Source: Alphaproteobacteria bacterium
GTDB taxonomy: Bacteria > Pseudomonadota > Alphaproteobacteria > MPNO01 > UBA830
DNA length: 64,000 nucleotides
Direction of reading: 5' to 3'
Assembly (NCBI GenBank): GCA_965243135.1
Contig: OZ251539.1
Coordinates: 4,352,001-4,416,000 of the forward strand
Every line of letters begins with the position of its first letter. Positions within the stretch are counted from its first letter, which is position 1. The notes under the pieces are model-generated. The model saw only the letters and a list, made by a program, of their open reading frames with translations. It made no database searches and was not told the origin of the DNA. Shown here one piece after another: positions 7,495 to 54,951 of this stretch. The translations under genes and the position numbers were made by a program.

Positions 7495-10386
7495 ATGATG
7501 CTTAGGAAAAAAACCAATGGGGTTGCGGGACGCCCCCATCGGGCTTCGCACCGCGTTTCGGAGAAATCCGTCGACCGGCGGACCTTCCTCCGCGGCTCGG
7601 GCCTCGCCATCGGCGGGCTGGCCGCGGTCGGCGCCACCGGCGGCATGGTGACCCAGGCGAAGGCGGCGAAGGCCGTTCAGGGCGCGGTGAAGACCGTCAA
7701 GTCGGTCTGCACCCACTGCTCGGTCGGCTGCTCCGTGATCGCCGAAGTCAGCAACGGCGTCTGGGTCGGGCAGGAGCCCGGCTGGGACAGCCCCTTCAAC
7801 CTCGGCGCCCATTGCGCCAAGGGCGCGGCCGTGCGCGAGCACGCCCACGGCGAACGCCGCCTCAAGTACCCGATGAAGAAGGAAGGCGGCGAGTGGAAGC
7901 GGATCAGCTGGGATCAGGCGATCGACGAGATCGGCGACGGCATGATGAAGATCCGCAAGGAGAGCGGCCCCGACAGCGTCTACTGGCTCGGCTCCGCCAA
8001 GTACAGCAACGAGCAGGCCTACCTGTTCCGCAAGTTCGCCGCCTACTGGGGCACGAACAACGTGGACCATCAGGCGCGCATCTGCCACTCGACCACCGTT
8101 GCGGGCGTCGCGAACACATGGGGCTACGGCGCCATGACCAACTCGTACAACGACATCCACAACTCCCGCGCGATCTTCCTCATCGGCGGCAACCCCGCCG
8201 AGGCGCATCCGGTCTCGCTTCTGCACGTGCTGAAGGCGAAGGAGCAGAACAACGCGCCGCTGATCGTCTGCGACCCGCGCTTCACGCGGACCGCCGCGCA
8301 CGCCGACGAGTACGTGCGGTTCCGTCCGGGCTCGGACGTGGCGCTGATCTGGGGAATTCTCTGGCACATCTTCGAGAACGGGTGGGAGGACAAGGAGTTC
8401 ATCCGCACCCGCGTCTGGGGGATGGACCAGATCCGCACCGAGGTGGCCAAGTGGACTCCCGACGAGGTGGAGCGGGTGACCGGCACTCCCGGCTCGCAGC
8501 TTCGCCGCGTGGCGCGCACCCTCGCGAACAACCGTCCCGGCACCGTGATCTGGTGCATGGGCGGCACCCAGCACACCAACGGCAACAACAACACGCGGGC
8601 CTACTGCGTGCTGCAGCTGGCGCTGGGCAACATGGGCACGTCGGGCGGCGGCACCAACATCTTCCGCGGCCACGACAACGTCCAGGGCGCGACCGACCTC
8701 GGCGTCCTGTCGCACACCCTGCCGGGCTATTACGGCCTCTCGGGCGGCGCCTGGGCCCATTGGGCGCGGGTGTGGGGCGAGGACCTGGGCTGGCTCAAGG
8801 GACAGTTCGCCAAGCTCAAGACCGGCGACGGCAAGGAAAAGGCCCTGATGAATCTGAGGGGCATTCCGGTGTCCCGCTGGATCGACGGCGTCCTCGAGAA
8901 CAAGGACAACATGGACCAGCCGGACAACCTGCGGGCCATGGTTCTGTGGGGGCACGCGCCGAACTCGCAGACGCGCCTCAAGGAAATGAAGACCGCGATG
9001 GAGAAGCTGGACATGCTGGTCGTGATCGACCCGTATCCCACCGTCTCCGCCGTGCTTCACGACCGGACCGACGGCGTCTACCTGCTGCCGGCCTCGACCC
9101 AGTTCGAGACTTACGGCTCGGTCACCGCGTCGAACCGCTCGATCCAGTGGCGCGACAGGGTCGTCGAACCGTTGTTCGAGAGCCTGCCGGACCAGGTCAT
9201 CATGGCCAAGTTCGCCAAAAAGTTCGGATGGGCCGACCGCTTCTTCCGCAACATCAAGATGGAAGCGCCCGACACGCCGAACGTGGAAGACATCACCCGC
9301 GAGATCAACGCGGGCATGTGGACCATCGGCTACACCGGCCAGTCTCCGGAGCGGATCAAGCTGCACATGGCCAACCAGCACACGTTCGACAAGACGACGC
9401 TGCAGGCGGTGGGCGGCCCGGCCGACGGCGACTATTACGGGATGCCCTGGCCTTCGTGGGGTCCGCCGGAAATGGGTCACCCCGGCACGCCGAACCTCTA
9501 CGACATGTCCAAGCCCGTGGCGGAGGGCGGCCTGACCTTCCGCGCCAGATTCGGCGTGGAGCGCGACGGCCAGAACCTGCTGGCGGAAGGCGTCTACTCG
9601 GCCGGCTCGGAAATCCAGGACGGATATCCCGAGTTCACCATGCAGATGCTGATGGACCTCGGCTGGGACAAGGACCTGACGGACAAGGAACGGGCGGCGA
9701 TCGACGCCGTGGCCGGACCCAAGACCAACTGGAAGACCGACCTCTCGGGCGGCATCCAGCGGGTCGCGATCAAGCACGGCTGCGCGCCCTTCGGCAACGC
9801 CAAGGCGCGGGCGGTGGTGTGGACGTTCCCGGATCCGGTGCCGCTGCACCGCGAGCCGCTCTACGCGCCCAATCGCGATCTGGTCAAGGACTATCCGACC
9901 TATTCGGACCGGAAGCTCTACCGTCTGCCCACTCTCTACGCCTCGATCCAGAAGAAGGACTTCTCGAAGGATTATCCGATGATCCTGACGTCCGGACGCC
10001 TGGTCGAGTACGAGGGCGGCGGGGACGAATCCCGCTCGAACCCGTGGCTCGCCGAACTTCAGCAAGACATGTTCGTCGAGATCAATCCGCGCGACGCCAA
10101 CGATCTCGGCGTCCGCAACGGTTCGCAGGTCTGGGTCGAAGGCGCGGAGGGCGCCAAGGTCAAGGTCATGGCCATGGTCACCGAACGCGTCGGCGCCGGA
10201 GTCGCTTTCATGCCCTTCCATTTCGGCGGGCATTTCGAGGGCAAGGACCTGAGGGACAAGTACCCCGAGGGAGCCGATCCCTACGTGTTGGGCGAGAGTT
10301 CCAATACCGCCCAGACTTACGGCTACGACTCGGTCACCCTGATGCAGGAGACGAAGACGACTCTCTGCAAGATCTACACGGCCTAG
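7495..10386 (+). CDS. fdhA: Formate dehydrogenase alpha subunit (Mo/W-bisPGD, Tat-exported)
   Basis: DRRTFLR Tat signal, CTHCSVGC...HCAKG 4Fe-4S motif, HQARICHS active-site Cys-His, RGHDNVQG. Confidence 0.96.
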   Translation: MMLRKKTNGVAGRPHRASHRVSEKSVDRRTFLRGSGLAIGGLAAVGATGGMVTQAKAAKAVQGAVKTVKSVCTHCSVGCSVIAEVSNGVWVGQEPGWDSPFNLGAHCAKGAAVREHAHGERRLKYPMKKEGGEWKRISWDQAIDEIGDGMMKIRKESGPDSVYWLGSAKYSNEQAYLFRKFAAYWGTNNVDHQARICHSTTVAGVANTWGYGAMTNSYNDIHNSRAIFLIGGNPAEAHPVSLLHVLKAKEQNNAPLIVCDPRFTRTAAHADEYVRFRPGSDVALIWGILWHIFENGWEDKEFIRTRVWGMDQIRTEVAKWTPDEVERVTGTPGSQLRRVARTLANNRPGTVIWCMGGTQHTNGNNNTRAYCVLQLALGNMGTSGGGTNIFRGHDNVQGATDLGVLSHTLPGYYGLSGGAWAHWARVWGEDLGWLKGQFAKLKTGDGKEKALMNLRGIPVSRWIDGVLENKDNMDQPDNLRAMVLWGHAPNSQTRLKEMKTAMEKLDMLVVIDPYPTVSAVLHDRTDGVYLLPASTQFETYGSVTASNRSIQWRDRVVEPLFESLPDQVIMAKFAKKFGWADRFFRNIKMEAPDTPNVEDITREINAGMWTIGYTGQSPERIKLHMANQHTFDKTTLQAVGGPADGDYYGMPWPSWGPPEMGHPGTPNLYDMSKPVAEGGLTFRARFGVERDGQNLLAEGVYSAGSEIQDGYPEFTMQMLMDLGWDKDLTDKERAAIDAVAGPKTNWKTDLSGGIQRVAIKHGCAPFGNAKARAVVWTFPDPVPLHREPLYAPNRDLVKDYPTYSDRKLYRLPTLYASIQKKDFSKDYPMILTSGRLVEYEGGGDESRSNPWLAELQQDMFVEINPRDANDLGVRNGSQVWVEGAEGAKVKVMAMVTERVGAGVAFMPFHFGGHFEGKDLRDKYPEGADPYVLGESSNTAQTYGYDSVTLMQETKTTLCKIYTA

Positions 10387-40814: not shown

Positions 40815-41681
40815 ATGATGGAAGTCGTACCGCTGTCCGAGGCGCTGGGCGCCGAAATCCGGGGCGTCGACCTGCGCGATCCCCTGGACGACGAAACCCG
40901 CCGGTCGCTCGTCGACGCCTGGCGCAAGCATATCGTCCTGCTTTTCCGCGGCCAGGAGCTCGACATCGGCCGCCAGACCGCGTTCGCCGCCCTTTTCGGC
41001 GAGGTCGGGCGTCATTTCCGGCCGAAGGAGATCAGGAACGAGGCGGAAGAACTCGGCCCCAACGTCATGCTGGTCTCGAACGTCCGCAAGAACGGCAAGC
41101 CGATCGGCTCGATACCCGACGGCGAAATGATGTTTCATTCCGACACGCCCTATGTCGAGCGCCCCCACAAGGCGACCGTGCTGTACGCTGTCGAGATCCC
41201 CTCGACGGGAGGGAACACGCTTGTCGCCAACAGCTACGCGGCCGCCGAAACCCTGCCCGCGGACGTCAAGCGGCGCCTCGCCGGACGCAAGGCGGTCCAT
41301 GCGTTCGAGTACGGCGCGACCCTGAAGTCCGGCAGGTTCGATCGCAGCGCTGCGCCGCACCATGCGCACCCGGTGTTCCGCAAGCATCCGGCGACCGGAC
41401 GGTCGGCGCTCTTCGTCAGCGAGTTGATGACGGAGGAAATCGTCGGCCTGCCGGAGGAGGAAAGCCGCGATCTTCTCGATCTGCTGTTCGCCCACCAGCG
41501 CCGGCCTGAATTCGTCCACGAGCACGTCTGGCGCCCCGGCGACCTGCTGATCTGGGACAACCGTTGCAGCATTCACGCCCGCACGGATTTCCCGCGCGAG
41601 GAGCGCCGCCTGCTGCGCCGCCTGACGGTGCTCGACGAGCATCCGGTCCTCATGGGCGAACCGCCCGGACTGCCGGCATGA
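40815..41681 (+). CDS. TauD/TfdA Fe(II)/2-oxoglutarate dioxygenase 1
   Basis: FHSD, GGNT, WDNRCSIHAR, RLLRR. Confidence 0.93.
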   Translation: MMEVVPLSEALGAEIRGVDLRDPLDDETRRSLVDAWRKHIVLLFRGQELDIGRQTAFAALFGEVGRHFRPKEIRNEAEELGPNVMLVSNVRKNGKPIGSIPDGEMMFHSDTPYVERPHKATVLYAVEIPSTGGNTLVANSYAAAETLPADVKRRLAGRKAVHAFEYGATLKSGRFDRSAAPHHAHPVFRKHPATGRSALFVSELMTEEIVGLPEEESRDLLDLLFAHQRRPEFVHEHVWRPGDLLIWDNRCSIHARTDFPREERRLLRRLTVLDEHPVLMGEPPGLPA

Positions 41682-42532
41682 CCTTCGAGACCGTTCCGCT
41701 CTCGGACGCGCTCGGCGCCGAGATAAAAGGGCTCGACCTGTCGCGACCGATCGACGAAGCGACCGCCGCGGCGATCGAAAACGCCTGGGCCGAGCATATC
41801 GTGCTTCTGTTCCGCGATCAGCGCCTCGACGAGGACCGCCAGCTCGCGTTCGCCGCGCGCTTCGGCGAACTCGGCGCGCGCGCCCGTCCGCCGGAGCGCC
41901 GTCCCGAAGGGGCGGACTACAACGACGCCGTCATGCTGGTCTCGAACGTCAAGAGGAACGGCGCCTACATCGGCTCGCTCCAGGACGGCGAGATGTGGTT
42001 CCACCACGACATGTGCTACGACCCCGCGCCCTACAAGGGAACCTTTCTCTACGCGATCGAGCTTCCGTCGACGGGAGGCAACACGCTGTTCGCCAACATG
42101 TACAAGGCCTACGAACGGCTCCCGGCGGCGACGCGAGAACGCATCCGCGGGCGGCGCGCCTTGCAGGTCTACGATTTCGCGATGCGCGAGCGAGTCGACA
42201 TCTCGGAAGACATCCGGAAGTACAAGCACTGCGTGCAACCGGTGTCGATCTCGCATCCGGTCACCGGGCGGCGGGCGCTATACGTCAACCCGCTGATCAC
42301 CGCGCGCATCGAGGGCCTTCCCGAGCGCGAGAGCGACGAACTGCTCGAAGAGCTCTTCGCGTTCACGCAGGACCGGGAGATCATCTACGAGCACGAATGG
42401 CGGATCGGAGACCTGACGATGTGGGACAATTGGAGTTCGTGTCACGCGCGGACGGATTTTCCCGCCGCCGAGCGGCGGATGCTGCGGCGTTGCATCATCA
42501 AGGGACAGCCGCTTTACGAGGAGGCGACATGA
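41678..42532 (+). CDS. TauD/TfdA dioxygenase 2
   Basis: FHHD, GGNTLFANMY, WDNWSSCHAR; ATGA coupling. Confidence 0.93.
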   Translation: MTFETVPLSDALGAEIKGLDLSRPIDEATAAAIENAWAEHIVLLFRDQRLDEDRQLAFAARFGELGARARPPERRPEGADYNDAVMLVSNVKRNGAYIGSLQDGEMWFHHDMCYDPAPYKGTFLYAIELPSTGGNTLFANMYKAYERLPAATRERIRGRRALQVYDFAMRERVDISEDIRKYKHCVQPVSISHPVTGRRALYVNPLITARIEGLPERESDELLEELFAFTQDREIIYEHEWRIGDLTMWDNWSSCHARTDFPAAERRMLRRCIIKGQPLYEEAT

Positions 42533-43374
42533 CGTTCGACATCGCCAAGCTGGCGCCCGCCATCGGGGCCGAGATCCGCGGCATCGACCTCAACAGGGAC
42601 CAGTCCCCGGAGACGGTCGCGGCGATCAACCGGATCTGGCTGGAGCACGTCATCCTGCTGTTCCGCGGCCAGAACCTGACGCCGGAACGTCAGGTCCACG
42701 TCACCCGCTGGTTCGGCGAGCTCGGGTATCTGGCGCGTCCCAAGGAATTCCGCACCAGCGGACACGACGAACTGCCGGACGGCGTGATGCTGATCTCCAA
42801 CATCCGCGAGAACGGCGAGCCGATCGGGGCCTTGCCCGACGGCGAGATGATGTTCCATCACGACATGATGCACGCGGAAGTCCCGCACAAGGCGACCATG
42901 CTGTATGCGGTCGAGATTCCGTCGACCGGCGGGAATACGCTGTTCGCCAACGGATACGCCGCCTACGACACGCTGCCGGACGAAATCCGCCGACCGCTGG
43001 AAGGGCGACGCGCCTTTCACCATTACAATTACGGCTCGGTGAAGAAGGGCGACGGCAAGGGAACGCCCGCGTTCGCGCAGTCCGATCATCCGGTCTTCCG
43101 CACCCATGACCAGACCGGAAAGAAGGCGATCTACGTCAACCGCCTGATGACCGAAGGCATCCTCGACATGGATCAGGAGGAAGCCGACGGGCTGCTCGCC
43201 GTGGTGTTCGATCATTCGGAAAGGCGGGAGTTCGTCTACGAGCACGAATGGCGGGTGGGAGATCTGCTGTTGTGGGACAACCGGTGCTCCATGCACGCGC
43301 GCACGGATTTCCCGGAGAACGAACGCCGGCTGCTCTGGAGAACCACGGTGTCCGGCGACGGCCCGCCGGCATAG
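42529..43374 (+). CDS. TauD/TfdA dioxygenase 3
   Basis: FHHD, GGNTLFAN, WDNRCSMHAR; ATGA coupling. Confidence 0.93.
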   Translation: MTFDIAKLAPAIGAEIRGIDLNRDQSPETVAAINRIWLEHVILLFRGQNLTPERQVHVTRWFGELGYLARPKEFRTSGHDELPDGVMLISNIRENGEPIGALPDGEMMFHHDMMHAEVPHKATMLYAVEIPSTGGNTLFANGYAAYDTLPDEIRRPLEGRRAFHHYNYGSVKKGDGKGTPAFAQSDHPVFRTHDQTGKKAIYVNRLMTEGILDMDQEEADGLLAVVFDHSERREFVYEHEWRVGDLLLWDNRCSMHARTDFPENERRLLWRTTVSGDGPPA

Positions 43375-43378
43375 GCGT

Positions 43379-44191
43379 ATGGGCAAGCTTCTCACGGACG
43401 AACAGGTTGCCGCGTACCGAGAGGACGGCTGCGTTTTTCCCTTTCGCGCCGACGGGCCGGAAGAGGCCGCGGCGAATTACCGACGTTACGCCGCGCTGGA
43501 AGCCGCGACCGGCGCGGAGCCGCAATCCCGATACAAGATCAAGGCGCATCTGCCTTTCCCGTGGATGTGGAACATCGTGCGCAACCGCAACATCCTCGAC
43601 GCGGTGGAGGATTTGATCGGTTCGGACATCCTGTGCTGGGGCTCGTCGTTCTTCACGAAGAAGGCCGGAGACCGCCGCTTCGTTTCGTGGCATCAGGACT
43701 CGACCTATTACGGACTTTCCGAGCCCGAAACCGTCACCGTCTGGTACGCCTTCACGAAGTCCGACGCGGAGGCGGGCTGCATGAGATTCATCCCGGGATC
43801 GCACCGGGACGGCATCCTCGAGCACGACGAGACCTGGGCGAAGGACAATCTCCTCATGCGCGGCCAGACCGTCCGCGGCATCGACGAGGCGGCGGCGGTC
43901 GACGTGCAGCTCGAACCGGGCGAGTTCTCGATCCATCATGAATCCGTGGTGCACGGATCGGGGCCCAACGACGCCGGTCACGAGCGCATCGGCCTTTCCA
44001 TCCATTACGTCGCGCCCCGAATTCGCCAGACCCGCCTCGGCCACGCCGCCGCGACCCTGGTGCGGGGCGCCGACACGCACGGTCACTGGCTCGAAGATCC
44101 GGAACCGGCCGGGGATTTCGACCCGGCCTGCCTCGCGGCCCTCGACGCCACCTACGGCGAGTACCGATCGGGCGTAGGCAAGCGGAACTGA
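43379..44191 (+). CDS. PhyH-family Fe(II)/2-oxoglutarate dioxygenase
   Basis: WHQD, GCMRFIPGSH, VHGSGPN...RIG. Confidence 0.92.
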   Translation: MGKLLTDEQVAAYREDGCVFPFRADGPEEAAANYRRYAALEAATGAEPQSRYKIKAHLPFPWMWNIVRNRNILDAVEDLIGSDILCWGSSFFTKKAGDRRFVSWHQDSTYYGLSEPETVTVWYAFTKSDAEAGCMRFIPGSHRDGILEHDETWAKDNLLMRGQTVRGIDEAAAVDVQLEPGEFSIHHESVVHGSGPNDAGHERIGLSIHYVAPRIRQTRLGHAAATLVRGADTHGHWLEDPEPAGDFDPACLAALDATYGEYRSGVGKRN

Positions 44192-44523
44192 TGCCGAAGG
44201 TTCCGACCGGGGAGCAGCCGAACCGCGGCGCCGCGACGGCGGCCGGTCGGCCTGCCGTCCGCAAGCGGAGACGCCGCTGGAATCGGGGCGGGCGTCGTTC
44301 CGCGAGACCATGCGCTCGTCCGACGACGCTTTGCTATCCATCTCGCGCCCGCCGCGCGGACGCATTTCGAGAACGCGGCGGCGTCCGTGCGGCCAAGACC
44401 GACGCGGCCGCCGGATCGAAGAGCCGGATTGCGAAATGCCGCCGGAGAGCCTGCGCGCGGCCGACGAGCGCCTGCGCCGCTGCGAGACCGCGACGCCGAT
44501 ACCCAACAGCCCGGGAGCGCGAC

Positions 44524-45000
44524 ATGACAGAAACGAAAACCGCGGGCTTCGATCCGCTGCAGTTGCCCGCCACGATCCGAAATCCCTACCCGCCGCCCTA
44601 CGACGACGTCCTGTCCGGACGCCGCCGCCGGGGGATCGGCGACCCGCACGGACTCACGGCGTTTGGGGTCAATCTCACGGACCTCGATCCGGGCGGCGTT
44701 TCCGCGCTGCGCCACTGGCACACGAAGGAGGACGAGTTCGTCTACGTCGTGGAGGGAACGCCGACGCTGGTCACCGACTCCGGGGAGCAGCTTCTGGAAC
44801 CGGGCATGTGCGCCTGTTTCCCTGCGAATTCCGGCGACGGGCACCGGCTCGAAAACCGCACCGACGGCGTCGTCCGCTATCTCGAAATCGGCAACCGGTC
44901 GAACGGCGAGGAAGTTCATTACCCGGATTCGGACATGATCCTAGAGAAATCGGAAGACGGCGAGCGGCGTTTCCGGCGCATGGACGGCACTCCCTATTGA
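44524..45000 (+). CDS. Cupin_2 domain protein
   Basis: GLTAFGVNL..L.PG..SALRHWH..EDEFVYV.EG...GH.LEN. Confidence 0.88.
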   Translation: MTETKTAGFDPLQLPATIRNPYPPPYDDVLSGRRRRGIGDPHGLTAFGVNLTDLDPGGVSALRHWHTKEDEFVYVVEGTPTLVTDSGEQLLEPGMCACFPANSGDGHRLENRTDGVVRYLEIGNRSNGEEVHYPDSDMILEKSEDGERRFRRMDGTPY

Positions 45001-45917
45001 TCCGGCGCGGCCTCGAGGCGATCGCCGACAGGGCCGCGCCGCTCATGGCCGGCGCGTTGATCGCCGGCTTCGCGATACCGGCGGTCTCGGATTTTTTCCG
45101 TTCCGTCATCCTGCACGCCATCGTCGTCGTTCTCACGGTGGCGATGATCCGTCTGGACGTGAACCGCTTCCGGGCCTACGCCCGGCGGCCCGCGACGCTC
45201 GCCGCGATCGCGGCCGTCAACATGGTCGCGGCGCCGTTGTTCGTCTGGGCCGCGCTGCGCCAGTTCCAGGCGCCGTCAGCCCTCGAACAGGGGCTGATCC
45301 TGATGGCGGCGGCTCCCATGATCAGCTCGGCGATCGCGCTGGCGGCCATTCTCGAACTCGACACGGCGCTCGCCGTCGCGGTCATGGTCGCGACCTATGC
45401 CGTGGCGCCGCTGACGCTGCCGGTCCTTTCCCTGTGGCTGATCGATCTCGACATCGACGCGGGCGAAATTTTCGTTCGTCTTTTCGGGCTGGTCGCCGGT
45501 CCGGCGCTCGCGGCCTTCCTTTTGCGGCGATGGCGGCCGGCGCGGAGCGCGCGCTACGCCCGCGCGATCGACGGGATCGGCGTTCTCGCGGTGGTCGCGT
45601 TCTGCCTCGGGATCATGTCGGGCCTCCAGGAATTCGCGCTGGATAATCCCGGCTACGTCGGGCTGACGCTGGCGGCCGCCTTCGCGGCCAATATCGGCCT
45701 TCAGGCGTTCGGCACGGCGCTCTTTCTGCGCATAGGGCGGCGCGAGGCTTTGACGGTCGGGCTCGTGACCGGCAACACCAATCTCGGCTTGGTCATGGTG
45801 ACGCTGGCCGACAGGGCCTCGCCGGAACTAGTGGCTTATTTCGTGCTCGGGCAGGTGCCGATGTATTTCCTGCCGGTCTTCGCGCTTCCCGTCTACCGCC
45901 GATTGATGCGCGAATGA
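44997..45917 (+). CDS. BASS/SBF-like (sodium:solute symporter) membrane transporter 1
   Basis: About 10 hydrophobic segments, AAAPMISS, GLVTGNTNLGL, GQVPMYFLP; TTG start overlaps the cupin stop. Confidence 0.75.
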   Translation: MIRRGLEAIADRAAPLMAGALIAGFAIPAVSDFFRSVILHAIVVVLTVAMIRLDVNRFRAYARRPATLAAIAAVNMVAAPLFVWAALRQFQAPSALEQGLILMAAAPMISSAIALAAILELDTALAVAVMVATYAVAPLTLPVLSLWLIDLDIDAGEIFVRLFGLVAGPALAAFLLRRWRPARSARYARAIDGIGVLAVVAFCLGIMSGLQEFALDNPGYVGLTLAAAFAANIGLQAFGTALFLRIGRREALTVGLVTGNTNLGLVMVTLADRASPELVAYFVLGQVPMYFLPVFALPVYRRLMRE

Positions 45918-46846
45918 TCGCGCTGCGCGCGCTCGACCTGATCGGCGTTCGGGCGACCTGGATGCTGGCGGGCGGCGTTTTCCTCGGCATCGCGTGGCAA
46001 CCGCTGGCGGACGCGCTCGCGCCCTGGCTGGAGGCGATGATCGTCCTCAACCTGTCGCTGTCGATGATGCGGATCGAGCCCTCGAGGTTCGTTTCCCATC
46101 TGAAGCGCCCCGGCCCGGCCGCGGCCGCGTTCGGATTCTCGATGATCGGCGCGCCGTTGCTGGTCTGGGGCCTGGCGGAGTCGACGGGAACGGGCGGCGC
46201 GCTCGGCGCCGGCATCGTTTTTCATGCGTTGACGACGCCGATCATGTCGGCGCCGGCGCTCTGCCTTCTGTTCGGCCTCGACGCGGCGCTGGCGCTGGCG
46301 GTCACCGTTCTTTCCTACGCGCTGGTGCCGTTCACCCTTCCGCCCATGGCGCTGTGGCTGCTGGGAATCGAGCTCGACCTGACGGCGCTCGAACTGGCAT
46401 GGCGCCTCGGCCGCATCGTCGGGATCAGCTTCGCGATCGCGCTGATCGCCCGGCGCTTCGCCGCGACCCGCGGGCTGATCGAAACGCACGCTTCGCGCAT
46501 CGACGGGGTTCTGGTGATCGTCATGGTCGGCGTCGCGGTGTCGCTGATGTCGGGATTGCCGGAATACGCGGCGGCGAGGCCCGGCTACACGGCGGTCGCG
46601 ACGGCCATGGCGTTCGCGACGAACGTCGCGCTGCAGGCGGCCGGCGCGGCGGCGTTCTGGCGGCTCGGGCGCCGCGCCGCCGTCACCGTCGGACTGATCA
46701 CCGGCAACACCAATGTCGCGCTCGTTCTGGCGGCGGTCTCGGAAAGCGCGTCCTACGACCTGCTGGTTTATTTCGTGGTCGGGCAGTTTCCGATCTATAC
46801 GCTGCCGCTGGTCGCGGTGCCGATCTACCGGAAGATCGCGCGATAG
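45914..46846 (+). CDS. BASS/SBF-like membrane transporter 2 (paralog)
   Basis: TTPIMSAP, GLITGNTNVAL, GQFPIYTLP. Confidence 0.75.
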   Translation: MIALRALDLIGVRATWMLAGGVFLGIAWQPLADALAPWLEAMIVLNLSLSMMRIEPSRFVSHLKRPGPAAAAFGFSMIGAPLLVWGLAESTGTGGALGAGIVFHALTTPIMSAPALCLLFGLDAALALAVTVLSYALVPFTLPPMALWLLGIELDLTALELAWRLGRIVGISFAIALIARRFAATRGLIETHASRIDGVLVIVMVGVAVSLMSGLPEYAAARPGYTAVATAMAFATNVALQAAGAAAFWRLGRRAAVTVGLITGNTNVALVLAAVSESASYDLLVYFVVGQFPIYTLPLVAVPIYRKIAR

Positions 46847-47080
46847 CCGCGACCGGCGGACATCGCCGCGCCCTTGGCCGGGACGCTTCCAAGCCGCGGC
46901 CGCTCCGGGGCCGAAGCCGGCCGAAACGAACCGGGAGCGCGAATTCGTTCCGCGCCGCGATCTCTCCCTGGAGCCGTCGAACGCAGGCGACCGCATTCCC
47001 GTATTTCGCCGAGCCTTGGCAGCCCTCTTCGCCTTTGCCCATCGCCGCGTTCCGGTCGGCACGGCGCCGTCGCGAGGCGG

Positions 47081-50047
47081 TCATGGAAGCCCTTGCGAAG
47101 GGTCCGGGACGAACGAAACGCCCGCCTTTCTTTCTTCGATCAGCCGATCGACTTCGGCTGCGACGGCCATGATTTCGGCCGGCGCGCGCACGGGCTCGCC
47201 GACACGGCGGCGCAGAGCAACCAGCAGTGGCGCAAGCCTGGCGGATCCGTCCTCGTCCGCGGCGAGCGCCTCCGCCAGACCGCGCTCCGGCGCGCCGCAT
47301 GCGACTAGTTCGATCGCGAGCACGAGAAACTCCCGCAACTCTGCCGCATTGTCGGCGTCGTACATGGCCCAAGCGGCCCGGAAAGCGTCGAGCACCGACG
47401 CGTACTCTTTCCGAACGGCCAGCGCCATCATTCGCGGCCATGCCGCGCGGCGGCGCCACTGTTCGTTTTCCTTCAGCTCGTTCAGCTTGAGATCGAGTTC
47501 GTCGCACGTGCGCAAGGCGGCGTCCGCACGTCCGATCCCAGCCTCTACCCAAGCCTTCTGCCACAACGCTCCGACGACCCACGGCCGGAAGTCATGGTGG
47601 TCATTGGCGTCAAACCGCCGCACGAGCCTGTCCCAAGTCGCGATCGCGTCCTCCGATCGGCCGGCCAGTGCTTGCGCCGCCGCTTTGGCGGCCAACGCAG
47701 TAGCGATGTGCGGCTGAACACTTCCTTCGCGTTCCGCTCCGAATCGCCCGTCGATCTCTTCGGCAACCGCGATGGCTTCCGGAGCCCGCCCCAGCTGCAC
47801 CAACGCGGACGCCCTAGTCGCCAGCGCCATCGCAACGGCGTCGCGCAAAACCGGATCGTTCGAAACTCCGAATCGCCCGTCGATCTCGACGCAGAGATCA
47901 ATCGCGTCCGAGCTCCGCTCAAGCTGCACCAGCTCGCACGCCTTCGCCGCCAACGCTCGAGCAACCGCTTCGCGGAAAATCGGCTCGCTCGCGGATTCGA
48001 AACGCCTCGCGATCTCGTCGCAAGCCGAAATCGCAGCCTCATGATTCTCGCGCCACACCAGCCATTCGACCACGGACGACAGCGCCGCGCACACGATTTC
48101 CCGAAGCTCCGAACTTTCGTCGCCTCCAAATTCGTCGACCAGCGCGTCGCAGGTTGCAATGGCGGCATCAATGTCGCCGATCCCGTTCTGAAGGATGCCC
48201 TTGCTGTAAAGCGTCCGTGCAACGACCTCGCGACGCTCGGCATCTTCGTCCGCTCCGAGACAGCGGTCGACCTCGTTCCAGGCAGCAATCGCCGCTTCGG
48301 CATCGCCGATTTGGTCCAGCATAACCCCCTTGTTGTACAAGGCTTTGGCAGCCGTCAGCCGAAGCGGTGGCGCGGCATCGTCGCCGCAATATCCGATTGC
48401 CTCATCAAAGGTTGCTATCGCCGCCGCCGAATCTCCAAGCATGTGTTCCGAAGCGCCCTTGGCGAGGCAGGCCATAGCGACCTGTTCCCGCAGCGCAACG
48501 CGCCCGGCGAAACGTTCGATCGCATCGGCGCAGACGGCAATGGCGGCCGGGTGATCGTCCAGTGCCGCGTGTGCTCTTCCCTTCATCACCATCGCCCGCA
48601 CGACATCCGTCCCGGTTCCCGGGCGCTCGTCCCGGAGGACACGGTTGGCCAGTTCCACGACGCGCTCGTAATCCTCGCCTTCGAACGCGGCCGCGACCCG
48701 CGCAAAAAGATCCGCGCGTTCGTCCGTTCCGGCTCGACGGTCCGAAGCGGCGTGCGCTTCGTGAAAGATCAAACCGGCGAGTCGGGGTTCCATGGCCACG
48801 GCCAAGCGGACGCCTTCCTGAACCGCCGCGGAGGCTCCCGCCTGCGAAGCGGCGAGAATCCGCCGCAGATCCGTGTCGGCGAAACAGGCCGACATGAACA
48901 GAACGAGACTCCGCACGACGAACGCCTGTCCATGTTCTCGGCGGAGCTTGTAGTAGAAGCAATAAAGGCCCTCGGCGGCCGAATAGAGCCGCTTCCTGCG
49001 GGAGCCTTCCGTCAGAACGGCGCCCCGGTCGACAAGCCTGCCGAGCATGGTCGAAACCGTTCGGACGTCCAGCGAGGCGCGAGCCGCTATCTCCCCCGCG
49101 GTCGACGGTTGCCAGAGATCGACCAGAGCCAGAAAGACGCGGCGCTCGATCCTGGGCATTCCATCCAGGTAACTTCGGAAATACTCGGTGTGAACGTCGA
49201 TCAGGGTCGCCAGCTCTTCCATCAGGCGGTCCAGGGAAAGATGGCGGGCGAAACGGGCGACGATGACCAGCAACCTGGGGCTGCCGCCGGTGAGGATTCG
49301 GATGGGTTCGATTTCGCGCTCGGACCTCTCGTCCCCTCCGACGGCCCGCCACAGGCGCTGGCAGGATCCGGCATCGAGAGGTTTCAGACACAGCGTGCGG
49401 AAGAGTTCGAAGAAGGCGTGCCCGGCATCGTCGAGCGCCTCGAAGCGGCTCGTAGCGGTGGCGATCAGGGTTAGGCGCGGTTCGGTTTGCAACGCCTGGC
49501 GCAACCCCCACCCGAAGTCGTCGTCGACGGCATCGGAAAGGGCGTGCAGGTTTTCCACCATGAGGACGAGATGCCGATCAAGCGACTCGCCCGCGCCCAT
49601 AACGGCCGCGCGCGCCCTATCGGCGAGTTCGCGCTCGCGCCAGCGGGACTTCAGATCCGCATGCGATGCGCGGAGTTCGCGAGACAGTTCGGGTTCGACC
49701 GCGGCGAGTTCGTTCGCAAGATAGAACAGCGCTTCGAGCCAGAAATCGGCGAGGGAGAAGACCTCATGACTCTCCTCCATGAACCTCACCGGCAGGAAGC
49801 GCCGGGAGCGTTCCTCGTCGACCCGGAGTTCGGCTGCGAGACGCGCCAGCAACATGGTCTTGCCGCGGCCGCGAGGCGCGACAACCAGGACGTGCTGGCA
49901 CGATGGCGAGTCGAGGTTTTCCTGCACGATCCGGAGCACGGTCTCCAGTTCGACGTTCCGGACCGCGTACTGCGCGATCACTTCGTTGTCGGACTGAAAG
50001 AGTCCGGGGTTGAATTCGCGGACCGTCGGCGGCTGCGGTTCGTTCAT
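47081..50047 (-). CDS. P-loop ATPase (STAND-like) + winged-HTH + TPR-repeat protein
   Basis: APRGRGKT Walker A, LMVENLH atypical Walker B, LTGGSPRL, STAGEIAARASLDVRTVSTMLGRL HTH, about 8 TPR-like repeats of ~45 aa. Confidence 0.88.
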   Translation of the reverse strand: MNEPQPPTVREFNPGLFQSDNEVIAQYAVRNVELETVLRIVQENLDSPSCQHVLVVAPRGRGKTMLLARLAAELRVDEERSRRFLPVRFMEESHEVFSLADFWLEALFYLANELAAVEPELSRELRASHADLKSRWRERELADRARAAVMGAGESLDRHLVLMVENLHALSDAVDDDFGWGLRQALQTEPRLTLIATATSRFEALDDAGHAFFELFRTLCLKPLDAGSCQRLWRAVGGDERSEREIEPIRILTGGSPRLLVIVARFARHLSLDRLMEELATLIDVHTEYFRSYLDGMPRIERRVFLALVDLWQPSTAGEIAARASLDVRTVSTMLGRLVDRGAVLTEGSRRKRLYSAAEGLYCFYYKLRREHGQAFVVRSLVLFMSACFADTDLRRILAASQAGASAAVQEGVRLAVAMEPRLAGLIFHEAHAASDRRAGTDERADLFARVAAAFEGEDYERVVELANRVLRDERPGTGTDVVRAMVMKGRAHAALDDHPAAIAVCADAIERFAGRVALREQVAMACLAKGASEHMLGDSAAAIATFDEAIGYCGDDAAPPLRLTAAKALYNKGVMLDQIGDAEAAIAAWNEVDRCLGADEDAERREVVARTLYSKGILQNGIGDIDAAIATCDALVDEFGGDESSELREIVCAALSSVVEWLVWRENHEAAISACDEIARRFESASEPIFREAVARALAAKACELVQLERSSDAIDLCVEIDGRFGVSNDPVLRDAVAMALATRASALVQLGRAPEAIAVAEEIDGRFGAEREGSVQPHIATALAAKAAAQALAGRSEDAIATWDRLVRRFDANDHHDFRPWVVGALWQKAWVEAGIGRADAALRTCDELDLKLNELKENEQWRRRAAWPRMMALAVRKEYASVLDAFRAAWAMYDADNAAELREFLVLAIELVACGAPERGLAEALAADEDGSARLAPLLVALRRRVGEPVRAPAEIMAVAAEVDRLIEERKAGVSFVPDPSQGLP

Positions 50048-51270
50048 CAGGAGGCTTTCCGAACGGCGTTGCGCTTCGCCAAGGGCGCATGGTGGCCGCG
50101 GAAGCGGCCCGCCCACCAATCCCGAAGCAAGCGGAAGGAGAAACGGTAGCCGCCAAGGCTCGGCTCGAGATAGCCGTCATGTTCGAGCACGCCGAGCGCC
50201 TCCCTGACGCGCTCGGGCGCGTCGTCGACGGCGTATTTCCGCTCGAGCTCGCGCTGCGCATCGGGCGAGAAAACTTTCCAAACGGCAGCTTCGGCGAGGA
50301 TCTCCATGGCGATGCAGTAGGTGTCGTCGTCGAGCGCCTCGCGCAGGCGCGTCTCGTAGTGCATGAGGTTGCCATGTCCCGGAGGACCGAGAAGTCCGGT
50401 GCGATAGGTTTCCTCGACGTCGGCCACGAATACGGCGGAGCCGTCCCGCATTCTGGAAAGGTCCCACAGGTGAGCGAAATGCCGCTGCACGAAGTGGGGG
50501 ATGCCAAGGCCGAGCGCGTCGTAGACGGCGCAGGCGACATCTTCCCCGGCTTCCAGTCCATTGCTTTCCGCAAGTCGGCGAAAGCAGGCGACGCTGGTGT
50601 CGCGATCCCACGGTTCGAGTCGAAACGGAGCCAGATGGTTGATGCGGTCGGACATGCCGAGCCGGTCGACAAGAGGAGCGAGTCCGATGCTGCCCGAAAG
50701 AATCGCCACGAGGGAACCGGCCTCAAGCGTCTGAAACGCATGGCGCATCCAGCTCAGAAATTCGTCGACCCGCCGCTCTCCTTCGGGGTCTCGCAGCAAG
50801 CGCGACAGGAAGACCGGCAGTTCGTCGACGACGAGGAAGACCGGCCGCTCGTGGCCGGCGCAGGTTGCAAACAGTCCGTCACCGACGCGGCGCCAATTGC
50901 CGGCGTTCAGTTCGGCGCGGAATTTCACGCGGAAGTCGGCGGCGGAAATTTCCTCGACGTTCCGCAGTATCGAGCTCATGCCATCGGCAAGGCGTTTCAC
51001 GATGGAACGCGCGAGATGGGCGGCCCGCGCCAGTTCGGCGATGGCGTCCTCGGGGCACGCGGCGTGCTCGACATCGGCGAACAAGGACACCCAGCCATCG
51101 GCCTCCAGTCTTCGTCCGATCTCGCGGGCGATGCTGGTCTTGCCCATGCGGCGTTGCCCGGACAGCAGGACATGATTGCCGTTGCAGATCCGATTTTCAA
51201 GGATCTTGAGTTCGGCTTCGCGTCCGTGGAAGTCATCCCCGACCACCCACCGACCGGTAGCGGATTTCAT
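50047..51270 (-). CDS. AAA/STAND-like ATP-binding protein
   Basis: DFHGREAE, GQRRMGKTS Walker A, LVVDELP Walker B, SGSIGL, GIPHFVQ, LEHDGYL..F...LLRDWW; TGATG coupling to the next gene. Confidence 0.88.
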   Translation of the reverse strand: MKSATGRWVVGDDFHGREAELKILENRICNGNHVLLSGQRRMGKTSIAREIGRRLEADGWVSLFADVEHAACPEDAIAELARAAHLARSIVKRLADGMSSILRNVEEISAADFRVKFRAELNAGNWRRVGDGLFATCAGHERPVFLVVDELPVFLSRLLRDPEGERRVDEFLSWMRHAFQTLEAGSLVAILSGSIGLAPLVDRLGMSDRINHLAPFRLEPWDRDTSVACFRRLAESNGLEAGEDVACAVYDALGLGIPHFVQRHFAHLWDLSRMRDGSAVFVADVEETYRTGLLGPPGHGNLMHYETRLREALDDDTYCIAMEILAEAAVWKVFSPDAQRELERKYAVDDAPERVREALGVLEHDGYLEPSLGGYRFSFRLLRDWWAGRFRGHHAPLAKRNAVRKAS

Positions 51271-51300
51271 GGCGCATCCTTTCTTCAACCTTTCGGATGC

Positions 51301-51342
51301 ATATTGGGATACAACAAACAAGTTGTCAACTATTTTGTTGAC
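51301..51342 (-). promoter_or_regulatory. Sigma70 promoter overlapped by two CAAC-N6-GTTG palindromes
   Basis: Minus strand TTGACA (51329-51324), 17 nt, CAATAT (51306-51301); palindromes at 51312-51325 and 51327-51340. Confidence 0.7.
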
Positions 51343-53041: not shown

Positions 53042-53836
53042 TTCCCCTTTCCCCGCCCGTCCGCGTCCAGAATCGCGAGCATGACCGAATCCGCGACAAT
53101 GCTCGCGGCCGCGGCCAAGTCGGCTGCGCACTCGTTGCGGTAGACCGGGATCTGGCGGCTGGTAACGCGGGCCGTGACCCTCCAGCCGTCCGACCCTCGC
53201 TCGGAGGTTGATCGCGTAGTCGGGCATTCCATGCTCCGCGATGCGTACATGCAACGTATATGTGCGCGGCATGCGCGCGGCGCAACAGAGTCGAGAAAAT
53301 TTTCTCGCCCCCACCTCGCCGATGGTCCGCGTCTCCAGGCAGCCCGGCTGCGGGTGGCCGCGGTCGCGAGGGCTCAGGCGCCCGAAGTCGGGAACGAAAG
53401 AAGAGGTTGCCGCGGCGCAGCGCCGTGCCGTCCTTCGACCGCCGGCCTTGCAAACGGAAATAACGCAGCCGCAAATGATGGCGCGACTGACGGCGCGGTA
53501 TGTCAGCGACGAGGCAGCCGCGCGTTCAACCGCAGGGCGGCCGCCTACGACCGGTCCGCCGAAGCCGAGCATGGAAACATTCTCCGGACTGCGCTGGCGG
53601 AGGAGGATTTCGCAGCAAGAGCCGAAGCGTCGCGGCAGCGGAGCGGCATCTCCGGCGAGGACGCGGCGACAGCGGCGGATGCGCTGCGGCGCCGCGCCCC
53701 CTTCTCCATGCTCTAGCTTCCCCCTGCCGCACGATGGGCGGGGTAACCGCCGGCAAAATAGCGCGGCAGTGCAGACGCCTGCTTGCAATCATCCGCATTG
53801 AGATTATATACACTCCAAATCTGGAGAGCGCCTTTC

Positions 53837-54268
53837 GTGCACGCCTATCATCCTGCGACGCGCTACGAGGTCGCGCCCCTTATCGATCTTTCCGACCGCA
53901 GGGAACGCGAGCGGCTCAGCCCGGACGCAGCGCGCACTTTCTTCAATATCATGGCTCGGTGGAAGATCCGTGACGCCGATGGCCGCCAGCTGCTCGGAGG
54001 AATTTCGAACGGCGCCTACTACGCCCTGAAGAAAGGATCCGACCGCACGCTCGACGAGGACAAGCTTCGCCGGATTTCGTATCTCGTCGGCATCTTCAAG
54101 GCCCTGAACCTGCTCTACAGCGAGGATCTGGCGGATCGCTGGATGCAGCTGCCGAATAAAAACAGGATCTTCCGCGGAACGACGCCGCGCGCCTATCTCA
54201 TGCAGGGCGGTCTGCCGGCGTTCGCCACGGTGCGAAAGCTCCTGGATGCGCGACGGGGCGGCCATTGA
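53837..54268 (+). CDS. Xre/MbcA/ParS-family antitoxin
   Basis: RLSPDAARTFFNI..RW...LLGG, RISYLVGIFKAL, W..LPN.N..F.G.TP, VR.LLDARRG; GGAGAG RBS; palindrome CTCCA-AATC-TGGAG at 53813-53826. Confidence 0.88.
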   Translation: MHAYHPATRYEVAPLIDLSDRRERERLSPDAARTFFNIMARWKIRDADGRQLLGGISNGAYYALKKGSDRTLDEDKLRRISYLVGIFKALNLLYSEDLADRWMQLPNKNRIFRGTTPRAYLMQGGLPAFATVRKLLDARRGGH

Positions 54269-54951
54269 ACGACCCCGCCGTCGCGCGCATCCGGCGACTC
54301 GACACGCATCGGCTCATTCCCTCGAACGAAGGCGCAGACAGCGTGCTCGTCAGAATCGCCGACGACGACGAACACCTTCGCGGCATCTTCGATCTGGATC
54401 ACGCGACCAACGATCGCCTGCTTGCGGAGAACGACCTGTCGCCGGGCATCGGCACCGACGAACTCGTGTTCAACATTCCTCATTGCCGCATCGTCAATGC
54501 GGCCTTCACGCACGCCCATCCCCTCGGCGCCCGGTTCAGCGGGCCGGACCGCGGCGCCTGGTACGCCGCGTTCGAACTGGAAACCTCGCAGACCGAGGTC
54601 GCTTGGCACAAGTCCGTCGAGCTCGCCGAAATAGACTGGCCGGAGGAAAGCATCACCTATGACGACTATCTCGCGGATTTCGGCGGGGATTATCACGACC
54701 TCCGGGGAGACGCGGGTTTCCGGCCATGCCTCGCCCCCGACAGTTACGTCGAAGCGCAGTCGCTCGCGGAGAACCTTCTCGCAAAACGGTCGCCGGGAAT
54801 CGTCTACCCAAGCGTACGCCGCAACGACGGCACCTGCCTTGCGTGCTTCCAACCATCGCTTGTCGGCAACGTTCGCAAGAACGCACGCTATCGCTTTACT
54901 TGGTCGGAACCATTCAGCCCGGAAATCGAGCTTGAAGTGCTCTACGCGTGA
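54265..54951 (+). CDS. RES-domain toxin (NAD+-consuming family)
   Basis: THRLI, RFSGPDRGAWYAA..ET...E, SY..AQ, GIVYPSVR..G.CLA.F; overlaps the antitoxin stop. Confidence 0.9.
   Translation: MNDPAVARIRRLDTHRLIPSNEGADSVLVRIADDDEHLRGIFDLDHATNDRLLAENDLSPGIGTDELVFNIPHCRIVNAAFTHAHPLGARFSGPDRGAWYAAFELETSQTEVAWHKSVELAEIDWPEESITYDDYLADFGGDYHDLRGDAGFRPCLAPDSYVEAQSLAENLLAKRSPGIVYPSVRRNDGTCLACFQPSLVGNVRKNARYRFTWSEPFSPEIELEVLYA

Follow-up and report, generated by a model that had tools for sequence, protein, structure and literature searches.

Introduction

The superfamily of signal-transducing ATPases that have numerous domains (STAND NTPases) was reportedly defined by Leipe and colleagues in 2004, and a G-x-P type motif counts among its defining features. 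An Avs protein consists of one polypeptide whose N-terminus carries an effector, for example a nuclease. To our knowledge, the proteins SSO1545 and PABY2304 have no assigned function and no obligate STAND partner with tetratricopeptide repeats (TPRs). The general STAND architecture has been described to include, as a rule, at least one effector domain at an end of the protein, and in the PH0952-type architecture an ArsR-type effector is located at the N-terminus. Here, we analyse two coupled ATPase genes, A and B, on the minus strand of a 64,000-nt stretch (the window) of contig OZ251539.1 from an alphaproteobacterium. As read from its sequence, the locus holds an ancient STAND module of two genes that is strictly coupled and mobile, with a candidate operator and a diversifying repeat sensor; no effector was found in it.

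A nucleotide-binding domain (NBD) with Walker A and Walker B motifs is present in A (GQRRMGKTS and hhhhDE) as well as in B (PRGRGKT and hhhhEN). In both proteins it is followed by helical and winged-helix domains with a G-x-P type motif, as seen in the models and the alignments. A C-terminal repeat sensor of nine 43-aa units is found in B, while A has none. Pfam, PADLOC and NCBIfam revealed no further domain in A or B that could serve as a terminal effector. The fold of both proteins, which belong to the STAND/AAA+ proteins, supports the architecture resembling nucleotide-binding leucine-rich repeat proteins (NLRs) and STAND proteins that had been proposed in an earlier annotation of the window (the original prediction), and the three model collections agree with its statement that an effector domain is not recognisable.

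The best Foldseek match of B is the archaeal STAND ATPase PH0952 (6mfv), with which it shares the order of NBD, helical domain, winged helix, arm and TPR-like sensor. In contrast to PH0952, B is always paired with an ATPase that consists only of a nucleotide-binding and oligomerization domain (NOD), has an E-N Walker B and carries about 30 residues before the NBD, and the two proteins show no significant sequence match. Neither a LuxR-type DNA-binding effector at the C-terminus nor an ArsR-type one at the N-terminus (the MalT/LAL and PH0952 kinds) was found in B by Pfam; its sole helix-turn-helix (HTH) is a TrmB-like winged helix inside the NOD. Protein A has the layout of NBD, lid and winged helix in common with the archaeal AAA+ ATPases SSO1545 (2fna) and PABY2304 (2qen), but scores below the Pfam cut-off of their family PF01637 (ATPase_2; 15 vs 33.2 bits). 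Two distant relatives of A reach 39.0 (P0289) and 39.4 bits (P0297).

Anti-phage Avs (AVAST) proteins resemble B in their layout: a STAND ATPase comes first, then a TPR-like sensor, which in Avs binds phage proteins, and Avs3 is the second fold match of B. However, A-B comprises two ATPase genes and no effector domain, and its link to Avs is the fold resemblance to Avs3 only; at E <= 0.1, neither A nor B matched an Avs model of PADLOC or a NACHT family of Pfam. Paired or helper-sensor NLRs (the NRC networks, NAIP-NLRC4) combine a variable sensor NOD with a conserved helper NOD, and their duplicated sensors may be likened to the A-B-B2 loci described below. The helpers of plants and animals carry effector domains such as CC or CARD, of which A has none. 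Fungal NLRs with internally conserved TPR, ANK or WD repeats have near-identical units with few hypervariable positions, like B. The parallel to plant, animal and fungal NLRs is an analogy, with no homology beyond the STAND fold.

Orc1/Cdc6 proteins, which have an AAA+ and winged-helix fold and form heterodimers on DNA (2qby), are among the top fold matches of both A and B. Neither protein matched a Cdc6/ORC family in Pfam or NCBIfam, and in contrast to these initiators, the repeat sensor of B and the promoter-proximal palindromes point to regulation and not to origin firing. STAND-TPR proteins are already known. What appears to be new is the obligate pairing of a NOD-only protein with an effector-less protein composed of NOD, winged HTH (wHTH) and repeats, together with the E-N Walker B and an operator that travels with the pair; for none of these features is there a matching model in PADLOC v2.0.0, Pfam or NCBIfam.

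Results

Two ATPase cores with invariant motifs

The longest minus-strand open reading frames (ORFs) of the locus are 47081-50119 for B and 50047-51321 for A, and their ATG starts give proteins of 988 and 407 aa, respectively (Table 1). The stop codon of A and the start codon of B overlap in a TGATG at 50045-50049, so that both P-loop ATPase genes and their junction are present as originally predicted. The GC content of the pair is 0.62-0.67, and in the flanks it reaches as much as 0.70. A recent duplication as the origin of A and B was considered and rejected, as BLASTP gave an E-value of 0.65 with similarity limited to the P-loop.

Table 1. Features of the A-B locus. Positions are those of the window.
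Feature	Position	Strand	Basis
Gene A, encoding a NOD-only ATPase of 407 aa (NBD, helical domain and winged helix at the C-terminus)	50047..51270	-	AAA_16 match, model, fold search
A Walker A GQRRMGKTS	51133-51159	-	alignment
A canonical Walker B (D149 E150)	within 50815-50838	-	alignment
A C-terminal winged helix	about 50137-50265	-	model
Gene B, 988-aa STAND-like ATPase (wHTH, 43-aa repeat array, conserved C-terminal cap)	47081..50047	-	Pfam, alignment, model, fold search
B nucleotide-binding domain, residues about 30-220	49388..49960	-	Pfam, alignment
B Walker A PRGRGKT	49856-49876	-	invariant motif residues, 29/29 sequences
B atypical Walker B V161-N166 (LVLMVEN)	49550-49567	-	invariant motif residues, 29/29 sequences
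B TrmB/MarR-like wHTH with basic wing, residues 296-358	48974..49162	-	Pfam, alignment, model secondary structure
B sensor array of nine TPR-like 43-aa repeats, residues 482-851	47495..48604	-	autocorrelation, repeat HMM
B conserved C-terminal helices, residues 932-976, motif LAPLLVALRxRxGExVRAPAE	47120..47254	-	alignment
Operator-like region (two overlapping palindromes upstream of A)	51312..51342	-	sequence read

The sole Pfam match of A above a cut-off is AAA_16 with 37.6 bits. When A was aligned with 26 relatives, the Walker A (GQRRxGKTS in the alignment) and the canonical Walker B VVDELP (hhhhDELP) were invariant, as were G254, G256 and P258 of a G-x-G-x-P-H motif, and a C-terminal LxVLxHDGYL segment was conserved. 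The AlphaFold model (pLDDT 84.4) consists of NBD, helical lid and C-terminal winged helix, with about 14 residues ahead of the NBD; the canonical Walker motifs and the winged tail predicted for the first ATPase are therefore both in place. The closest solved structures by family profile are 2qen (E 1.7e-4) and 2fna. The same two are the best folds (TM 0.58-0.68), followed by Orc1/Cdc6, RuvB and the ZAR1 resistosome. Judged by its canonical Walker B, A should be a competent ATP hydrolyser. A longer or fused form of A was not found at E <= 1e-20 in a search that the tool itself rates as weak evidence, and two distant relatives with N-terminal extensions carry no additional Pfam domain. A single-chain counterpart of the split pair is seen in P0343 (700 aa), a distant relative of A in which an A-like NBD is joined directly to ordinary 34-aa TPRs.

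Protein B matches AAA_16 and AAA_22 over residues 30-176, under the cut-offs, whereas residues 300-358 match PF01978 (TrmB) with 26.2 bits, above the cut-off of 25.6. In the alignment of 29 B sequences, V164, E165 and N166 of the Walker B (LVLMVENL) are invariant in 29/29, with Glu at the first acidic position and Asn at the catalytic position. Going by general Walker B chemistry, the E-N in place of D-E should let B bind nucleotide but hydrolyse it poorly. The pairing of an active with an atypical ATPase that had been suggested for the locus is in line with these motifs, and so is the description of the second ATPase as having a Walker A, an atypical Walker B and a wHTH.

Further invariant residues of B are G254, G255 and P257 in the GGxPR motif, R329, V331, S332, L335, G336, R337 and L338 in the wHTH, where the recognition helix and the basic wing are conserved, and L938, P940, A944, L945, P956, E958 and I970 in the C-terminal cap. 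An N-terminal peptide, RKFNPGxFQSD, is conserved as well, and about 30 residues precede the NBD. In the full-length model of B (pLDDT 81.3, pTM 0.51), NBD, lid, wHTH and arm are followed by a long alpha-solenoid with capping helices. Its top Foldseek match is the STAND-TPR protein PH0952 (6mfv, E 1.5e-8), the second is Avs3-terminase (8dgc, E 1.6e-7), and the DNA-bound Orc1/Cdc6 heterodimer (2qby) as well as 2qen stand lower in the list.

The defence models that we used are those of PADLOC-DB v2.0.0 (2023), which covers systems described up to 2023. The best matches were mad8 for A (1.9e-4, P-loop only) and a CARF-wHTH model for the wHTH of B (1e-4), both at noise level. No system model was matched above noise, an outcome that the original prediction had named as favouring novelty. 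None of the NCBIfam profiles came close to its cut-off with A or B, and the ESM Atlas matches were generic 'ATP-binding protein' clusters only. A full-text literature search, which covered few subscription journals and excluded supplements, found no paper that describes the A-B gene pair. The complex prediction of A with residues 1-440 of B gave a score of 0.00, which counts neither for nor against binding.

Strict pairing and distribution

A pattern scan of one genome per species yielded 376 stretches with a relative of A, of which the best 80 loci were kept. All 80 records are metagenome-assembled genomes (MAGs), and they represent at least 10 phyla. A homologue of B lies on the same strand, a few tens of bases downstream of A, in 80/80 loci. 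It also follows A in all five paralogue loci (~40% identity), which confirms the co-occurrence of the two genes at this distance too. When the 4,225 ORFs of the 80 loci were clustered all against all, only A and B were present in every locus; the next independent cluster was found in 11 loci, and the remaining large clusters were overlapping shadow ORFs. By this clustering, no third gene is conserved beside the pair in the 80 loci. Scoring of 8,000 candidates gave 1,223 relatives of A and 3,612 of B at E <= 1e-3, with contigs of equal length behind many of the A and B hits, and an exhaustive search of 50%-identity representatives gave 213 relatives of A at E <= 1e-30 and 999 at E <= 1e-10.

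Five loci from Latescibacterota (L005, L016, L030, L058, L079) have the order A-B-B2, in which two full-length paralogues of B, each 815-909 aa long, come after A. The genome of the window itself carries a second, diverged pair about 42 kb away and outside the window (L095; G000:C1 about 4443540-4447085, minus strand). Its A' is 39% identical to A and has one in-frame TGA, and its B' is 33% identical to B.

A close orthologue was not found in the 40 relatives searched, three of which carry the paralogue only (~40% identity). Synteny with four same-genus genomes extends over 41692-46830 of the window, and the ADH and ECH genes that lie beyond the pair sit together elsewhere in those genomes. 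The pair is therefore located at a synteny break, as expected for the insertion that had been claimed for it. The identity of A between phyla reaches 86% (Alphaproteobacteria vs Binatia; Latescibacterota vs Nitrospirales). A FastTree phylogeny of A with 71 tips from 10 groups required 24 changes of phylum, compared to a minimum of 9 and to 45-50 in five examples out of 200 shuffles. In our reading of these patterns, A-B is horizontally mobile and spread among at least 10 phyla. The 72,556 plasmid records searched contain only 2 distant matches to A, with 24-28% identity.

Nine of the 80 MAG records bear the prefix RHO, COS, IRC, APA or SB066x. The first three of these are presumably names of sponge-symbiont MAGs. 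Published work confirms that the names APA_bin and SB066x_bin stand for MAGs of symbionts from two sponges, Aplysina aerophoba and Ircinia ramosa. One 'sponge metagenome' run contained 26% of the sampled locus words, and three further such runs contained 14-18%, too little to count.

The repeat sensor of B

The repeats of B were identified by autocorrelation and a repeat hidden Markov model (HMM); self-BLAST of B gave no repeat pairs. The autocorrelation peak lies at a lag of 43, so that the period is 43 residues and not 34, and Pfam TPR matches are present. The original prediction of about 8 TPR-like repeats was right about the presence of an array, but not about the number and length of its units, which are 9 units of 43 aa instead of 34-aa TPRs.

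With the repeat HMM, 9 units were counted in window B and 4-16 among 120 homologues. The median identity of repeats within a protein is 0.63 and the maximum 0.87; in the homologue P0045, nine near-identical units differ at few positions. Window B belongs to a subclade (P0003, P0005, P0006, P0010, P0013) with degenerate units of 0.28-0.36 identity, its own value being 0.28. The highest within-protein entropy was found at repeat positions 5, 6, 9, 12, 13, 16, 17, 19, 20 and 24, and P1, A8, A10, L11, K14, G15, G22, R37, F38 and G39 form a fixed framework. With a spacing of i, i+1, i+4, i+7, i+8, i+11, the variable residues line up along a single face of the first helix. This variable face may be the ligand groove of the solenoid. 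The sensor varies both in unit number and at surface positions; TPR variability was among the points that the original prediction had named for a survey.

Across the 80 loci, the B ORFs are 513-1275 aa long, apart from a frameshifted one of 235 aa, two truncated at the end of a contig (482 and 614 aa) and a single ORF of 1745 aa. Short forms of 513-627 aa (L014, L020, L006, L026, L036, L046) have kept the NOD and the C-terminal cap and have lost most or all repeats. In L017 (9243-11140) the B homologue is split by a frameshift into two tblastn segments in different frames that meet at 9944-9947.

Operator-like palindromes upstream of A

The 268-bp spacer upstream of A contains two overlapping palindromes. 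The first is GTCAAC-aaaata-GTTGAC, with its CAAC-N6-GTTG core at 51327-51340, starting 70 nt upstream of the ATG of A. The second is ACAAC-ttgttt-GTTGT, with its core at 51312-51325, starting 55 nt upstream. Both overlap a TTGACA -35-like hexamer (51324-51329). In a consensus scan for promoters and terminators, the one promoter-like site lay within A, and terminator-like sites were as frequent as after shuffling.

The palindrome is strongly concentrated in front of A. In 48/80 loci, the 150 nt upstream of A contain TCAAC-N6-GTTGA, compared to 12 sites in the remaining 1.29 Mb of those loci, and in the 64-kb window it is found only once, upstream of A. The core CAAC-N6-GTTG is present at this place in 70/80 loci with 154 sites, against 30 sites elsewhere in 1.29 Mb; 10/80 loci have no exact core upstream of A. 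At least two core sites are found in 53 loci, with peaks near -72, -57 and -32, and the consensus is TG(T/A)CAAC-AAA(A/T)TT-GTTGACA. The core also stands just upstream of the diverged A' (L095). The 6.1-Mb own genome contains five TCAAC-N6-GTTGA sites, where about 2 are expected by chance, and a single GTCAAC-N6-GTTGAC, which is the one upstream of A. From these sites, no wider regulon is visible in this genome.

That this cis element persists across phyla while no third gene is conserved suggests that A or B binds it, and that the operon is autoregulated via one of the winged helices. The TrmB-like wHTH of B with its invariant recognition helix is the first candidate for binding the palindrome. 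The original prediction had proposed DNA binding as a possible output, and the conserved operator-like palindrome at the promoter lends this indirect support.

Genomic neighbourhood

Within 4.5 kb of the pair, we surveyed 122 ORFs of the loci L001-L017 (17/80, taken in list order; no matched control). Generic PADLOC matches, namely UvrA and transporter ABC ATPases, sigma-54 activators and ComEC, were set aside. Strong, specific defence matches were found in 8/17 loci: NsnC (L002), Type I restriction-modification (R-M) subunits (L003), PDC-M05A (L004), a Type IIG R-M enzyme with PsyrA-like and AbiJ-domain proteins (L006), QatC and RmrA-like proteins adjoining a TrwB/TrwC conjugation module (L009), DruA, PDC-S01 and a HerA-like protein (L011), a further Type IIG R-M enzyme (L012), and a Type IIG/I-like enzyme with an Argonaute-associated Cas4-like nuclease (L015). 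Transposases or conjugation genes are present in 4/17 loci, with transposases in L001, L003 and L007. The expected defence-island association is suggestive only: defence genes lie near the pair in these eight loci and not in the other nine, in a survey that has no matched control.

In L009 (2539-7636 and 14094-16656) the pair lies directly downstream of genes for a TrwB coupling protein and a TrwC relaxase and is followed by QatC-like and ImmA/IrrE-HTH genes. In this locus, an integrative conjugative element probably carries the pair as cargo.

In the window, 2.5 kb from gene A, an Xre/MbcA/ParS-type antitoxin gene (53783-54268, plus strand) and a RES-domain toxin gene (54265-54951, plus strand) overlap by 4 nt. 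Both read as intact ORFs with Pfam matches, contrary to the claim that the toxin-antitoxin genes near the pair have decayed. On the other side, the plus-strand region 40815-45917 encodes three TauD-family dioxygenases, a PhyH dioxygenase, a cupin and an SBF-family transporter, and most of this run (as part of 41692-46830) is syntenic in the four same-genus genomes with 69-77% DNA identity. Between the transporter gene and the end of B (45893-47172), long overlapping ORFs without a Pfam match are found on both strands. This interval probably holds a real gene of an unfamiliar family, since the DNA up to 46830 is conserved in the same-genus genomes.

Discussion

We give an even chance to the view that A-B is a mobile, autoregulated, putative conflict or defence system, directed against phages or mobile elements, in which B would be the NLR-like sensor and A its helper ATPase. 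At rest, a dimer of B (or of A) would sit on the palindromes and repress the operon, with B autoinhibited. A macromolecular ligand in the repeat groove would then open B, and open B would nucleate co-assembly with A into an ATP-driven oligomer. This A-B oligomer, probably acting on DNA, would itself be the output, given that the locus has neither an effector gene nor an effector domain apart from it.

Several observations weigh against this view. The repeats of window B belong to the degenerate subclade and therefore show no sign of recent repeat turnover. Across phyla, A and the NOD of B keep ~60% identity, an unusual degree of conservation for genes in an arms race. In a survey without matched control, 9/17 loci had no neighbours other than metabolic, housekeeping or regulatory genes, and no PADLOC, NCBIfam or Pfam defence model was matched by A or B above noise. 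As there is neither an effector domain nor a conserved effector gene, the killing or blocking step would be conjecture.

A bolder version of the defence view, which we put forward tentatively and with some doubt, takes the pair as an effector-less paired NLR and as a new bacterial immune class. Here, a diversifying B, nucleotide-locked by its E-N motif, would recruit A, and the DNA-associated co-oligomer would be the effector; the module would bring its own operator and be exchanged among at least 10 phyla, with many carriers in sponge microbiomes.

The pair could also be a ligand-responsive transcriptional regulator of the MalT, PH0952 or IniR kind, which we regard as unlikely but worth serious consideration. 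B would sense a small molecule or a protein through its repeats, A would be a co-factor, and the targets would be the own operon and perhaps unlinked genes; the pair would then serve a physiological or host-association response in place of defence. The Pfam-significant TrmB-type wHTH of B, the conserved operator at the promoter and the 9/17 loci among metabolic or housekeeping genes fit such a role, and STAND-TPR regulators such as IniR are reported to exist. However, the neighbours of the pair vary between loci, which leaves the operon itself as the only conserved target, and the few palindrome sites in the own genome (five, with about 2 expected, and one full GTCAAC-N6-GTTGAC) mean that no regulon is visible. 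Homogenised repeats with a hypervariable surface, a range of about 0 to 16 repeats and transfer between phyla are atypical of housekeeping regulators, and a second, catalytically competent ATPase would be left without explanation. The operator also bears on the idea, improbable in our view, that the pair serves as initiator or maintenance function of an unrecognised mobile element, where Orc1/Cdc6-like proteins would act on iteron-like palindromes to replicate, partition or stabilise it. Each locus has two to four repeated palindromes, the distribution is patchy with transfer between phyla, one locus adjoins the TrwB/TrwC conjugation module, and Orc1/Cdc6 proteins including the DNA-bound heterodimer 2qby are among the top folds of A and B. 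Yet the palindromes lie exactly at promoter distance from A and not in a separate origin-like region, the plasmid records gave just the two distant matches, no integrase, replication or partition gene is conserved beside the pair in the 80 loci, and a hypervariable repeat sensor is foreign to initiators.

The sponge-associated records raise the question of a symbiosis factor, with B among the 'eukaryote-like' TPR proteins that are enriched in sponge symbionts and acting on host proteins; we see very little chance of this. It would agree with several carrier genomes being named sponge-symbiont MAGs, with the one 'sponge metagenome' run that holds about a quarter of the sampled locus words, and with TPRs counting as one of the repeat classes that are followed in sponge symbionts as eukaryote-like proteins. 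In build, however, both proteins resemble nucleotide switches of the cytoplasm: their winged helices are of the DNA-binding type, and an operator is present. Pfam gave no secretion-related domain, with no dedicated signal-peptide prediction made, and at least one carrier, the MFD-labelled MAG in L017, has a name outside the sponge naming schemes, as judged by the name alone.

If the mobile sensor-helper pair is indeed a defence system, it would add the helper-sensor logic of paired NLRs to bacterial STAND immunity, and it would mean that a NOD oligomer needs no separate effector domain in order to act. Both points are open questions in NLR biology. The 43-aa array, with its homogenised units and hypervariable stripe, lends itself naturally to studies of the diversification of repeat sensors. 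The occurrence of one pair with up to 86% identity across phyla, including named sponge symbionts, would be a case of habitat-level sharing of a putative immune module. Finally, the conserved operator provides an experimental entry point for binding assays and reporter fusions.

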